64,000 nt of DNA from an uncultured Actinomycetota bacterium (GCA_963843135.1 CAWJJA010000018.1:310017-374016); one strand, 5' to 3'; shown: positions 48,602 through 64,000, counted from the first letter of the stretch. Notes: generated from the sequence alone by a model not told the origin. Translations and numbers: made by a program.

Positions 48602-51600
48602 CTAGAGCAGGCCGAGTAGTTCCAGGTCGGTGACGTACTTGACGATGGTGGGCGCGGTGATGTGGGGGATGTCGTCGCCGGAACCGATCCTCGCTTCCTG
48701 CACGGCAGCGCGGAACCGGTCGGTGGGCCCGTAGGCGCCGAGTGCCGGCTCCGGGGCCTGCAGACTTCCGGCACGCTGGAGCAGCACCTCGAGCAGTTGA
48801 AGCACAGAGTGCTGGCGCTGTACATCCGGCAACTGGCGCAGCCCGGTCTCGAAACGCTGCACCCATTCTCCGAAGTCGGCGATGCGCTCGATGGGATAGC
48901 CGGCCTCGATCAGCCAATCGACATACTCGTCGAGCCCGATGCCGTCGTCGTGCGGGTTCATCGCGTGGTAGGTCTCGAAGCCGTCGACCACCGAAGTGCC
49001 CAACGTCGCGATCGCCTCGGCGACGAAATCGACAGGCAGCCCGTCGAAGTGCGCGCGTTGCCGGTGGCCGTCCGCATCGAGTCGATAGAACGATTGGGGT
49101 GCGACGCCGGTGGCGACCACGCTCAGCACCATCCGAGCCGCATTGTCGGAGGCATTGAGCTGACCGGCATATGTGGTGTCGGCCATGATCATGTCGCAGC
49201 GGAACACCGCGACCGGCAGCCCGCACAGGTCGTGGGCCTCGCGCAGCAGCACCTCGGCGGCCCACTTGCTGTTGCCGTAGCCGTTGGCGTAGCTGCCGTC
49301 GACGGCCCGGGTGGGACTGATGACCCGGATGTCGGCGTCCTCGGTGAAGACACACTGCTCGATCTGTTGGCTGACGTCGGCAGTCGACACGTAGGTGAAG
49401 GACTTCAGCTTCGTGGTCAGCGCGAACCGGATCAACTCGGCAGTGCCGACAACGTTGGGGCCGAACAACTCTCGATAGGGCAGGACGCCGTTGACGAACG
49501 CGGCGGAATCGACGATCAGATCGACGGTGTCGGCCAGCCGCTGCCAGGTCTGCTGATCCAGTCCCAGGTTCGCCTTACCCTTGTCCCCCGCGATGACTTC
49601 CAGATGCTCGTCGGCCAATTCCCGGAAGTGCCTTAGCAATTCGGTGTCGCCGCTGTCAAAGGTCTCCTCCAGCCGGCGCCGCGCATCGTCGTCGTCCTTG
49701 CCCCGCACCAAGCAGATGAGCCTGCCGTCGACCGAGTCCAGCCGTTCCAGCCATTCCAGGGCCAGGTAGCGCCCCAGGAATCCCGTCGCCCCGGTCAACA
49801 GCACCGTGCGCACTTCGATGCTGGGCGGTGGCAGCGTGGGGGCGGCGGTCAGGATCGTCTCGTCGATGAACTTGTCCAGCGTGAGGTCACCGGCGTGCAC
49901 CTGCGTGGCGTCGCGGCCATGCACGGAGGCAAAACTCGGTCCGTTGGCTGCCGATATCGCGGCCGAGCCGGCATCGCCGTCCAGGTGCCGACTCAGGCTA
50001 CTGACCGTCGGCGCCTCGAATATCGCATGCACCGCAACGTCGGCGTTGAGACCTGTGTTGATGGCGGCGATCACCCGCATCGCAGAAATCGAATCGCCGC
50101 CGAGGTCGAAGAAGGAGTCGTCGACCCCAACCCGATCGACTCCGAGGACTTGGGCGTAGATCCCCGCCATCAGCTCTTCCACCGCGTTGGAAGGCGCGCG
50201 GTACACAGTGGCGATGTCGCGGTACTCCGGGGCCTGCAAGGCGGCGGTGTCGAGTTTGTTGTTGGACGTCAGCGGCAGCGCATCCAACACCACGATCGCC
50301 GAGGGCACCATATAGGCCGGTAGCCGGTCTGCGAGTCGAGCCCTCAGCTCGCTCGGGTCGGCGGTCCCGGTGATGTAGCCGACCAGGCGCTTATCACCCG
50401 GGCGGTCCTCGCGCGCGATCACCACCGCCTGCTCCACCCCGTCGAGCTCGGCGAGCGCGGCCTGGATCTCACCCAGTTCGATGCGATAGCCGCGGATCTT
50501 GACCTGCTCATCGGCACGGCCCAGGTACTGCAGCTGCCCGTCGGGGCCCCACCGCACCAGATCCCCGGTGCGATACATCCTTTTTCCCTGTGCACCCGCC
50601 GCCCCGAACGGGCACGCCACAAACCGGGACGCCGTCAAATCGGACCGCCCTACGTAGCCTGCCGTCACGCCCTCACCGGCCACATACAACTCACCGACGA
50701 CGCCCGCAGGCACCGGCTGCATCCATGTGTTCAACACGAACAGTGCCGCCCCGGGCACCGGCGACCCGATCGGCACAACACCCGATCCCGGTGACAGCGG
50801 CGAACTGATCGCCACACACATCGTGGTCTCGGTCGGTCCGTACGCGTTGATCATCACCCGCCCCGGAGCCCACCGATCCGCCACCTCGGCCGGGCAGGCC
50901 TCGCCGACCACTGCCAACGCTGTGGACTCCAGACCGTCGGGCGACAGCATCGACACGGCCGACGGGGTCTGGGTGAGTACGGTCACCTGTTCGCTCACCA
51001 GCACGTCGTGGAAATTCTGCGGCGACTTCGTCACCGCCTCGGGCACCACCACCAGCCGACCACCCCGCAGCAGCGCGCCGCAGATCTCCCACACGGAAAC
51101 ATCGAACGCCAACGAATGACACAGTGGCCACACGCCCGCTGGCGGAAGGCCGGCGTCCAGTGACGCCATCAGTCGCGTCACGTTGTGATGAGTGACGGCA
51201 ACACCTTTGGGAACGCCGGTGGTGCCGGACGTATAGATCAGATACGCGACATCGTCCGGTGTCGGCGCCTGCAACTGGGCGTCGGGTTGGGCATCTGTGG
51301 CGGGATCGTCGAGGTCGATGACCAACAACCCGCACCCGTCCAACCGCGACCGCAGCCCGGCGGTGGTGATCACCGCGGCCGGCGCGGCATCAGCGAGGAT
51401 GAACTCCAACCTCGCCGCGGGCACCGCCGGGTCGATCGGCAGATACGCCGCCCCGGTCTTGAGCACCGCGAGAATCGCGATGACGGCCGCGGCGGTTCGC
51501 TCCGACATCAGCGCCACACACTCGCCCTGGCCCACGCCCTCGGCTGCCAGCAGATGCGCCAGTGCGTCGGCGGCCTCATCCAGTTCGCGATAGGTCCACG

Positions 51601-62000: not shown

Positions 62001-64000
62001 AGCAGGTTCGCCAACCTGTTGGCGGCCTCATCGAGTTCGCCGTAGGTCGTCGACCGACCGTCGAACGTGAGCGCGATGGCCTCGGGGGTCCGGTCCACCT
62101 GCGCTGCGAAGGCAGCGGGAATGGACGTCGGCGCGGTGACCGGCTCGATCAGCACCGCCCGGTTGGTCCACTCGTGGAGCTTGTCGTGCTCGTCGGCGTC
62201 GAGTGCGTCTATCGATGACAGTCGCCGCGTCGGGTCAGCGATCATCGAAAGCAGGAGCCGCTCGAAACGATCGACCAGCGACTCGATGCGGGCGACCTCG
62301 AAGACGCCGGAGTCGAACTCGACGCGAAGCCCGAGTTCGTGACCCGGCAGGACCATCACCGACAGCGGGTAATGGTTGTATTCGCGGTTGCTGAACTCGG
62401 TGATCGCCAACTCGTGCACGCCGGCGAATGCGCTGGCGTCGATCGGATAGCTCTCGTACAGGAACAAGGTGTCGAACAGCTGATCGTGACCGGCGACGTG
62501 GTGGATCTCGTTGAGCGCCAGGTGCTCGTGCTCGATGGTGTCGTTGTGGTGGCGCTGCAGCTGCCCGAGCAGGTCGGCGACGGTGTTCGCGGCGGACATG
62601 TCGGCGCGGATCGGCACGGTGTTGATCAGCAGGCCGACGATCGAATCGGCGCCGGCCAACTCGGCGGGCCGTCCCGAAACCGCGGTGCCGAAGGCAACGT
62701 CATGATGGCCGGTCTCCGCCATCAGCAGCTGCGCCCAGGCAGCCTGGAGCACGGTGTTGACGGTGGTGTGTTGTGCGCGGGCCAACTCGCCGAGCGCGCC
62801 GGTGACCTCGGCCGACAGCCGATACGATTCCACGCCGCGCGGACCTGGGGGCGCCTGTGGGGCGACCAGGGTGGGAGTGTCGAAGCCGTCGAGCACCTCA
62901 CGCCATGCCAGCCTCGCGGCGTCGCGGTCCTGGCCGGCCAACCAGCTCACGAAGTTGCGGTACGGCGTGGCGGCGGGCAGGCGCTGCCCGAAGTAACTGG
63001 CGAGGACCTCCTGCAGCAGCACCGGTAGCGACCATCCATCGATCACGATGTGGTGGAAGGTCAGGACACATCGGTGCTGGTTACCCGCGGTCCGAATCAA
63101 AGCGGCGCGGAAGGTCGGCCGGTCGTTCAGGTCGCAGACCGCTACACGCTCGGCGGTGCACAGCTGCTCGATCTCTGCATCGGACTTCCGGTCATCCCAT
63201 CGCAGATCCAGATAGCGCCAGGCCATCACGGGGTCGGCAGGGATGATCTGCACCGGCTCGCCGAACTGTTCGGAGAAGCGGGCCGCCAGGTTGGGATGGC
63301 GGGTGACCACGTTCTGCACCGCATCGCGGAAGCGGTGCGCATCGAGGGCGCCGCTGACGGTGATGTCGAGCTGCACCGCATACACATCGTCGCCGGTACC
63401 CCGCGCAAGCGTGGAGTGGAAGAGCAGTCCCTGCTGCAGCGGGGTCAGCGGAAGCACGTCGGTGATGTCGTGCTGCTGGCTCAGGTCGTCGATCTGCTGC
63501 TGGCTCAGTCGGGCCGGGGCGAGGTCGGAGGGAGTGAGCCCGCCGCCGCCGTTGCGCACGTGTGCGCAGATACCGGTCAAGGCCTCGAACCACAGCTGGC
63601 TCAGGCGGTCGACCTGTTCGGGGTCGAGCGCCGAAGGTGCCCACGTCCAGCTGGCCTGCAGTTGCGGACCGGCGTCGGTGTCGAGGGTGCCCGCGTTGAG
63701 CTCGACGGTGTGCATCAACGGCATGGGTACCGACGCGGCCACGGCTGCGACCGAGAAGTCGTCCTGATTGACTCGCCACAGATCATCGGAGATGTCGCCA
63801 ACGCCCGCACCGAGACGACCCAGGTAGTTGAACCCGATGGTCGGATCGGTCCCGCCCAGATCGATGTCGGGGTTCAGATAGCGCAGCAGACCGTAGGTCA
63901 AACCGTCCGGCAAGGCGCGCAGCTGCTCCTTGGCGTTCTTGACGACCGGCCCCAGCGCGGCGTCACCGGCGGTGACCTGTGCCCACGACAACCCGCCAAC
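59073..64000 (-). pseudogene. non-ribosomal peptide synthetase NRPS-2, visible part ...E-C-A-T-R (5' end beyond the window), frame break in the reductase domain
   Basis: The frame is open to the window edge. The E-domain tail comes first, then the C domain (HHIVIDG at 63035-63055). The A domain shows [16 protein letters not shown] and NAYGPTE. The T-domain Ser codon is at 60548-60550. The R domain starts at about 60280 ([13 protein letters not shown]). A break at about 59774-59778 separates ...ISATR from [14 protein letters not shown].... The stop TAG is at 59073-59075. Confidence 0.85.
59073..64000. repeat. paralogous block B of the duplicated NRPS segment
   Basis: See block A. Similarity is high in the E-tail/C domain and in T-R but lower across the A-domain core (see findings). 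Confidence 0.8.

Follow-up and report, generated by a model that had tools for sequence, protein, structure and literature searches.

In non-tuberculous mycobacteria, colony morphotype, sliding motility, the formation of biofilms, sensitivity to phage and virulence all depend in part on glycopeptidolipids (GPLs), and the lipopeptide chain that is handed to the synthetase Mps2 during their assembly is lipo-D-Phe-D-alloThr. Described GPL loci carry an mbtH-mps1-mps2-gap operon together with a homologue of Rv1174c (PMC1885439, in which Billman-Jacobe 1999 and Sonden 2005 are cited for the M. smegmatis operon). The MbtH protein GplH is required for GPL production and can be replaced by other MbtH proteins, and the tripeptide-amino-alcohol core of these lipids is described as constant (PMC3537567). 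The locus considered here occupies the right-hand end, from position 48,602, of a 64,000-nucleotide (nt) stretch of DNA from an uncultured Actinomycetota bacterium (GCA_963843135.1 CAWJJA010000018.1:310017-374016), hereafter the window. This region is the distal end of a GPL non-ribosomal peptide synthetase (NRPS) operon (mps2a-gap-TB8.4-like gene), followed by a block that is so far confined to a narrow clade and consists of an rmt paralogue, a dead mbtH and a second, complete Mps2-type synthetase gene, mps2b, abutting htpG. The GPL peptide operon is a known system; what has been added to it here is specific to the clade and seems not to have been described. Our preferred reading, to which we assign a probability of roughly 0.6, is that the end of a GPL operon is joined here by mps2b as a putative alternative terminal subunit, one that would install a bulkier last residue and that is broken by small insertions and deletions (indels) in the present assembly.

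The canonical arrangement can be read from a scaffold of the M. smegmatis type (L007), which encodes the exact M. smegmatis Gap. There Mps1 (3431 amino acids, aa) and Mps2 (2559 aa) overlap by 4 nt and gap follows; Mps2 begins with its AMP-binding domain and has the order A-T-E-C-A-T-R (A, adenylation; T, carrier; E, epimerisation; C, condensation; R, reductase). An earlier reading of the window from its sequence, the first-pass annotation, had given Mps2 as C-A-T-E-C-A-T-R, which the A-first order corrects. Mps1 is, judged by its size in L007 and seen directly in the gene upstream of mps2a on a metagenome scaffold from the European Nucleotide Archive (ENA; L004) and in the Mps1 of M. intracellulare (L009), a synthetase that ends in a C domain. 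The two subunits are split at a C|A linker, and therefore the C-terminal C domain of Mps1 must act in trans on the first module of Mps2.

A canonical operon end

According to the open reading frame (ORF) map and Pfam matches, the elements of the locus all lie on the minus strand and are transcribed in the order NRPS-2 (mps2a), gap, TB8.4-like gene, TylF/Rmt methyltransferase gene, mbtH relic and NRPS-1 (mps2b). The elements, strand and order listed by the first-pass annotation were thereby confirmed, NCBIfam and tblastn searches included. Its view of these as GPL-type genes also holds: the two Mps2-like synthetases are both real, NRPS-2 being 76% and NRPS-1 71% identical to the M. smegmatis-type Mps2, and the GPL-type companions gap, TB8.4-like gene and mbtH relic are present. 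The operon that it named, mbtH-mps1-mps2-gap with an Rv1174c homologue, agrees with PMC1885439. It had not recognised the arrangement as a described one, and our full-text search likewise found, within the literature searched, no account of a second mps2.

The visible part of NRPS-2 comprises Pfam matches to an E tail, Condensation, AMP-binding, PP-binding and NAD_binding_4 (E-C-A-T-R), and its orthologue in L004 (2551 aa) has the full A-T-E-C-A-T-R order. In full-length alignments NRPS-2 is 86% identical to Mps2a of L004, 79% to Mps2 of M. lehmannii, 76% to the M. smegmatis-type Mps2 and 74% to NRPS-1. Because it is closer to canonical Mps2 proteins (76-86%) than to NRPS-1 (74%), NRPS-2 is, on these comparisons, an ordinary mps2 orthologue and is called mps2a. 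In L004 the gene 5' of mps2a has a C domain as its last domain and shares 4 nt with the start of mps2a, and the upstream partner of mps2 in the two M. lehmannii loci (L008 and L011) is a 3419-aa Mps1. The L004 gene (1-955 of that scaffold) is called at 1177 aa, not ~3420 aa, and may be either a shortened Mps1 or a split gene.

The gap gene, which encodes a GPL-addressing membrane protein, starts 3 nt past the mps2a stop codon, at 59069. Its product matches PF11139 over profile positions 1-183 of 213 and stands in the correct position after mps2, with the C-terminal ~34 residues replaced through a frameshift; it is 49% identical to the M. smegmatis Gap, and its orthologue in Mycobacterium sp. 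2YAF39 has 263 aa in protein and DNA alignments. The TB8.4-like protein is intact (111 aa), with a signal peptide that reads as ending at ASA|QPE. It matches the whole of TIGR04529 'hemophore-related protein' (60.4 bits, cut-off 32, profile positions 1-77 of 77), which we take to be the family of Rv1174c/TB8.4; a Pfam search with this protein gave no match. An orthologue of 112 aa stands directly after gap in 2YAF39 (L001), in L004 and in both M. lehmannii loci. A scan of metagenome contigs with the TB8.4-like protein returned a single 1.7-kb contig, and a scan of genome contigs with Gap, in which exact 8-mer patterns were too strict, returned one unrelated 6-kb contig of a metagenome-assembled genome at 54% identity.

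A second, complete Mps2-type synthetase

After frame repair, mps2b encodes ~2555 aa in the order A-T-E-C-A-T-R, starting at the C|A linker with a GTG that aligns to the Met of its orthologues. In the assembly it is divided among three ORFs (56406..54250, 54386..53511 and 53707..48602), and in tblastn the intact 2552-aa protein of 2YAF39 falls on the window in three frames (56274-54334, 54329-53556 and 53554-48605). The orthologues are intact, at 2552 aa in 2YAF39 and 2553 aa in L004. Full-length identities are 88% to the 2YAF39 and 79% to the L004 orthologue, and 70-74% to every canonical Mps2. NRPS-1 is, by these measures, a distinct Mps2 paralogue that lies about as far from mps2a as the M. 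smegmatis Mps2 does. The frame-repaired synthetases are free of stop codons and keep all catalytic motifs: GGDS in both carriers, HHLAVDG, EGHGR, RTVGWFT and FNYLG in the E domain, HHIVLDG in the C domain, and TGATGFLG and YGNSKW in the R domain. The N-terminal linker peptide of Mps2b is conserved among its orthologues and closely resembles the N-termini of Mps2a and of the M. smegmatis Mps2.

The possibility that NRPS-1 is a 5'-truncated mps gene that has lost a C domain was rejected, since canonical Mps2 likewise begins at the C|A linker; an architecture of ~2550 aa in the order A-T-E-C-A-T-R is neither truncated nor unusual but exactly that of canonical Mps2. An mps1-mps2-gap context is not found around mps2b, which has on its 5' side only the mbtH relic and rmt and on its 3' side the convergent htpG, with no gap.

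The arrangement rmt-mbtH relic-mps2b-htpG was seen in the window genome, in Mycobacterium sp. 2YAF39, where gene order is the same at 86% nucleotide identity, and in L004, which also shows the full upstream mps2a. A Logan contig (L005) holds part of it, from gap to the start of the downstream synthetase and without htpG. Neither the M. lehmannii loci examined nor the M. smegmatis-type locus has this arrangement.

Ratios of nonsynonymous to synonymous substitution rates (dN/dS; Nei-Gojobori) for mps2b are 0.14 between the window and 2YAF39, 0.19 between the window and L004 and 0.18 between 2YAF39 and L004, at dS of 0.49-0.75. Other genes of the region give 0.14 (mps2a), 0.19-0.22 (gap), 0.10 (htpG), 0.09 (methyltransferase) and 0.08-0.12 (TB8.4-like). 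Because its dN/dS lies at 0.14-0.19, mps2b has clearly been maintained by purifying selection in three lineages.

The two paralogues are identical at 77% of nucleotides, and their longest common run is 41 nt. This run (53508-53548 and 63960-64000, minus strand) is clipped by the window edge and adjoins the frameshift at 53555. Here the sequence of NRPS-1 agrees with that of NRPS-2 and departs from that of its orthologue in 2YAF39, and the run may be a gene-conversion tract between the paralogues.

The methyltransferase gene and the mbtH relic

The methyltransferase (268 aa, intact ORF) is TylF-type, with matches to PF05711 and PF13578. Its counterpart in the 2YAF39 locus (P0001) is 93% identical; identity is 83% to two copies (P0009 of 2YAF39, in L003, and P0008, in L013) from tailoring clusters of the conventional mmpL-atf-rmt-gtf-gtf-rmt-rmt content, and 73% to M. 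smegmatis proteins named Rmt3, which bears out its assignment to the GPL type. By these identities it is a paralogue of the TylF-type rhamnosyl O-methyltransferase from the tailoring cluster.

Between this gene and mps2b, tblastn aligns residues 12-34 of the intact MbtH from the M. intracellulare GPL locus at 78% identity (E 3.6e-9). A second frame, interrupted by an in-frame stop, carries residues 2-13, and the C-terminal half is gone. An MbtH-like protein (PF03621, an intact ORF of ~70 aa) is not present, as only residues 2-34 align, and the 50-aa relic peptide had no match in NCBIfam. The same relic was found in 2YAF39 and in L004, so this mbtH copy is dead in three lineages. Taken together, rmt-mbtH relic-mps2b looks like a condensed second copy of an rmt ... 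mbtH-mps1-mps2 stretch from which mps1 would have been lost.

Base composition shifts across this part of the locus (56500-58200): third-position GC is ~0.72-0.74 in the TB8.4-like and methyltransferase genes against ~0.83 in the flanking synthetases, and it falls to 0.55-0.66 in the spacer with the mbtH relic.

Adenylation pockets of the two subunits

Specificity codes (Table 1) were taken at the Stachelhaus positions by alignment to a GrsA-PheA reference fragment, which reproduced the published DAWTIAAICK code. Codes for the M. intracellulare Mps1 come from a fragment (P0258), and a protein search with the C domain of the L004 upstream gene gave fragments of at most 552 aa.

Table 1. Ten-residue codes of adenylation domains in Mps1, Mps2 and Mps2b
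Domain	Code
Canonical Mps2, first A (D-Ala)	DVWC[IV]AAIYK
Canonical Mps2, last A (alaninol)	DVWYVAAIYK
Window NRPS-2, last A	DVWYVAAIYK
mps2b, first A	DVWCVAAIYK
mps2b, last A, window and 2YAF39	DVWTAVAMCK
mps2b, last A, L004	DAWTAVAICK
M. intracellulare Mps1, Phe module	DFWTVAAVCK
M. intracellulare Mps1, Thr module	DFWSVGMVHK
M. intracellulare Mps2, Ala modules	DVWSVAAVYK and DVHSVAAVYK

The terminal code of mps2a is the same in the Mps2 proteins of the M. smegmatis-type locus and M. lehmannii and in Mps2a of L004. The first A domain of mps2b fits the Ala-type pocket DVW[CYS][IV]AA[IV]YK; its terminal A domain does not. That terminal pocket is without the markers of the Ala modules, Tyr331 and Tyr/Cys/Ser278, and instead combines Thr278 with Cys331, like the Phe module. 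When the A domains are placed in a neighbour-joining tree, this one branches as a separate clade that belongs with neither the Ala nor the Phe domains (65-72% identity to each), and the pocket, although distinct, is conserved among the mps2b orthologues. A terminal A domain copied from the Phe module of Mps1 is not supported, given 66-68% identity and a separate branch. The alignments show that Mps2b differs from Mps2a mainly, as judged from these codes, in the substrate pocket of its last A domain. The last substrate of Mps2b is probably bulkier than Ala.

Frame-breaking indels

Four single-base indels break the reading frames of the locus. DNA alignment places two +1 insertions in mps2b, one at ~54330, within a run of G directly behind the first carrier domain, and one at ~53555, where the E domain ends. 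Relative to 2YAF39, a +1 insertion in gap (a C in CC, ~58385) exchanges the last ~34 residues for 46 unrelated ones, and relative to five homologues mps2a has a -1 deletion (GG to G) at ~59776, just ahead of the YGNSKW motif of the R domain. Through this frameshift the mps2a ORF ends at 59660, and the rest of the R domain lies in another frame (59774..59076). In this assembly the locus, as its frames read, cannot release the GPL peptide. The first-pass description of the locus as partly decayed is thus apt for the mbtH copy, dead in three lineages, and for these four assembly-specific 1-bp indels, but not for the arrangement itself. The indels are either a very recent inactivation, giving a GPL-null variant of the 'rough' type, or assembly errors.

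That the four indels are errors of assembly or consensus, and that the organism itself has an unbroken, working locus, has in our estimation a chance only a little short of even. Every lesion is a single base, and comparison with the orthologues reveals no nonsense codons, no larger deletions and no relaxed selection. Elsewhere in the window, an Exo_endo_phos (PF03372) gene unrelated to the GPL locus (44772-45819, plus strand) is also split by a frameshift into two ORFs, 44772-45485 (profile positions 1-137) and 45469-45819 (146-225), and mps genes are split in other public assemblies such as that of M. intracellulare (L009). On the other hand, a run of at least four identical bases is present at only one of the four sites. 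The 16-kb nuo operon (15956-31995, plus strand), which serves as an internal control of the assembly, showed no frame disruption, nor did the other genes checked: Pfam profiles are matched over their full length by nuoB-H and nuoJ-N, and no Pfam profile is matched by a candidate nuoA (15956-16375). Mis-assembly or read mis-mapping between the paralogues was considered as a source of the frameshifts and is unlikely at 77% identity and a longest common run of 41 nt.

In the M. intracellulare assembly (GCA_000523595.1, L009 1115-21659), the gene calls divide mps1 into pieces of 2874 + 552 aa and mps2 into pieces of 702 + 1862 aa, and mps2 is followed by an ORF with a starter-type C domain and an A-first Mps-like synthetase in place of gap. 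Either the GPL genes have a further NRPS as neighbour in this genome or the assembly is rich in frameshifts.

A different explanation is that mps2b and its neighbours are the functionless leftover of a duplicated GPL block, the peptide branch being a true pseudogene cluster in a GPL-negative organism. The death of the mbtH copy in all three lineages would fit, as would the clustering of lesions: the 15.4 kb of the locus hold four of the window's five observed frame breaks, and the other 48.6 kb hold one (binomial P(>=4/5) ~0.014). Loss of GPL through mps indels is, moreover, well documented in M. abscessus. Against this, dN/dS of 0.14-0.19 over dS of 0.5-0.75 indicates that mps2b has been selectively maintained, the window branch has no excess of nonsynonymous changes (with L004 as outgroup, 49 nonsynonymous to 207 synonymous in the window lineage and 77 to 231 in that of 2YAF39) and no nonsense codons, and the terminal A pocket is distinct and conserved among orthologues. 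We consider this explanation unlikely.

Real indels would make this organism a natural variant that is GPL-null, as in rough M. abscessus; erroneous ones would show that frameshifts called in long NRPS genes of high GC content need to be treated with caution.

A proposed role for Mps2b

The pockets, the architecture and the linker suggest a role for Mps2b as an alternative terminal subunit. Like Mps2a, Mps2b would take over the lipo-D-Phe-D-alloThr chain through the C domain that ends Mps1, would add D-Ala (its first A code is canonical) and then a residue bulkier than Ala, and would release the product reductively as an amino alcohol, so that a second chemotype of the GPL core would arise. 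Tailoring of this product may fall to the linked Rmt paralogue, and an upstream gplH may serve both subunits. If it does, the dead mbtH is explained, and cross-complementation among MbtH proteins is documented (PMC3537567). A further step, in which Mps2b would compete with Mps2a for a single Mps1 and two GPL cores would result, one ending in alaninol and the other in a bulkier hydrophobic amino alcohol, is offered tentatively and is possible rather than probable.

Several points weigh against the role proposed for Mps2b and the reading of the locus built on it. No Mps1-type partner gene lies directly upstream of mps2b, and its pairing with Mps1 in trans is only putative; mps1 and gplH themselves would lie beyond position 64000 and are taken from relatives, among which the L004 upstream gene is called at 1177 aa. 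The terminal A code of mps2b maps cleanly to no substrate, and Mps codes are atypical in general, the Ala modules (DVW[CYS][IV]AA[IV]YK) also being superficially Phe-like. The frameshift in the Exo_endo_phos gene makes assembly error a live alternative to real inactivation, and the four indels are unaccompanied by relaxed selection on the window branch, where the ratio of nonsynonymous to synonymous changes is 0.24 against 0.33 in the sister lineage.

The first of these points bears on the alternative that Mps2b is a stand-alone dimodular synthetase. It would then form a free D-Ala-L-Xaa dipeptide aldehyde or alcohol, maybe of the pyrazinone type, independently of GPL. The gene is A-first, its sole upstream neighbour is a dead mbtH and not a C-domain gene, and its terminal R domain has intact TGATGFLG and YGNSKW motifs. 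AusA-like enzymes have the order A-T-C-A-T-R and make a dipeptide aldehyde that cyclises to a pyrazinone-type product; Mps2b, with its extra E domain, resembles them in domain order. However, canonical Mps2 is also A-first and yet works with Mps1, the N-terminal C|A-linker peptide is conserved with Mps2a, and the gene sits within a GPL operon beside a GPL-type Rmt paralogue. An independent, stand-alone Mps2b is decidedly improbable.

The first-pass annotation had favoured a compact, rearranged locus whose product, if any, could be a non-glycosylated or differently tailored lipopeptide amino alcohol. In its full form this explanation is a self-sufficient GPL-like locus, devoid of genes for glycosylation and export, that makes or once made a non-glycosylated product of this kind. 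The 64-kb window indeed holds no gtf, mmpL, pks or fadD genes. Its NRPS-2-gap-TB8.4-like segment is nevertheless the usual tail of mps1-mps2-gap in relatives, and the window stops within mps2. The nearest named relative, 2YAF39, carries a full tailoring cluster of conventional content, mmpL-atf-rmt-gtf-gtf-rmt-rmt (L003), on a separate contig. Since gtf, mmpL and rmt genes are in a separate cluster in this relative, their absence here is no pointer to a non-glycosylated product. The rmt gene of the locus is itself paralogous to a tailoring rmt, for which a rhamnosylated substrate would be expected from the family name. A compact, self-sufficient locus is therefore very improbable, the least likely of the explanations considered.

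Should Mps2b act as the alternative terminal subunit proposed, some environmental mycobacteria would vary the peptide core of GPL itself, beyond its sugars. This would be a natural exchange of NRPS subunits at the point where Mps1 and Mps2 are, unusually, divided between C and A, and a case of subunit-swapping combinatorial biosynthesis in a cell-envelope lipid.

Boundaries and neighbouring genes

The coordinates of the locus and its boundary gene are collected in Table 2. Genes htpG and mps2b converge tail to tail, an adjacency shared with Mycobacterium sp. 2YAF39 and scaffold L004; htpG is a conserved boundary of the locus and lies outside the GPL system.

Table 2. Features of the GPL-type locus and its boundary in the window
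Feature	Coordinates	Strand	Basis
mps2a (NRPS-2)	59073..64000	-	Pfam; 3' 4.9 kb of canonical Mps2, off window edge
gap	58242..59069	-	PF11139 SfLAP, E 1.3e-34
TB8.4-like gene	57817..58152	-	NCBIfam TIGR04529
TylF-type methyltransferase, rmt paralogue	56848..57654	-	PF05711, PF13578
mbtH/gplH relic	56566..56663	-	tblastn E 3.6e-9, six-frame translation
mps2b (NRPS-1)	48602..56274	-	Pfam, tblastn with 2YAF39 orthologue
htpG (Hsp90)	46647..48587	+	PF00183, E 1e-141

The left 48 kb of the window consist of the nuo operon, oxidoreductases, an insertion sequence (IS) integrase and htpG. The IS ORF (integrase core, rve and rve_3; 41830-42789, plus strand) lies ~4 kb left of htpG, and a search for inverted repeats there gave weak pairs only. 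Two tandem genes for flavin monooxygenase (FMO)-like enzymes of the Baeyer-Villiger type occupy 35840-38906 (minus strand), with a luciferase-like monooxygenase (within 38860-40362, minus strand) and a flavin amine oxidase (39860-41227, plus strand) nearby. A scan of 48.3-59.3 kb for promoters and terminators was uninformative, with no candidate promoter and with terminator-like sites scarcer than in a shuffled control, and Rfam and tRNA scans of the window gave no matches.

Comparison with known GPL loci

The closest described system is the GPL operon of M. smegmatis. Its Mps1 has a terminal C domain, as has the gene upstream of mps2a in L004. Shared with the window are an Mps2 of ~2550 aa in the order A-T-E-C-A-T-R, gap directly downstream, and the A codes of the canonical subunit (DVWC[IV]AAIYK first, DVWYVAAIYK last); GPL loci of the M. 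smegmatis type also hold a TB8.4/Rv1174c homologue and TylF-type Rmt genes. In contrast, the window has a second complete mps2 with a changed terminal pocket, preceded by an rmt paralogue and a dead mbtH, its TB8.4-like gene stands right behind gap and not beside mmpL4b, and sap and ecf do not follow gap. The loci of M. lehmannii are alike in order and spacing (mps1 of 3419 aa, mps2 of 2551 or 2553 aa, gap, and a TB8.4-like gene of 112 aa), but there glycosyltransferases and methyltransferases follow, and mbtH relic, mps2b and htpG junction are all missing. Synteny with other GPL loci therefore upholds the non-canonical arrangement first proposed only in part: the mps2b block is extra, whereas the mps2-gap-TB8.4-like order is ordinary, as in M. 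lehmannii.

Other changes in GPL-type loci offer partial parallels. The pstA gene of M. avium subsp. paratuberculosis is a deletion-fusion of mps1 and mps2 (PMC3537567). It is a precedent for recombination among highly similar Mps modules that remodels the NRPS genes and alters or abolishes the peptide; one fused gene replaces the pair in pstA, whereas the window keeps a canonical mps2 and adds a complete extra one. Duplication and specialisation of atf1 and atf2 has been shown experimentally in M. abscessus and M. chelonae (PMC1885439). This is likewise a duplication of a GPL-pathway gene followed by divergence of the copies, although it concerns a tailoring acetyltransferase, whereas the window concerns a core NRPS subunit whose divergence is read from sequence. 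Finally, smooth-to-rough loss of GPL in M. abscessus is attributed to indels in mps1, mps2 or mmpL4 (e.g. PMC5996870). The single-base indels in mps2 and its neighbours reported here are of the same kind and would abolish GPL; they differ in that a single locus, in a mycobacterium of environmental type, has four putative indels that are independent of one another.

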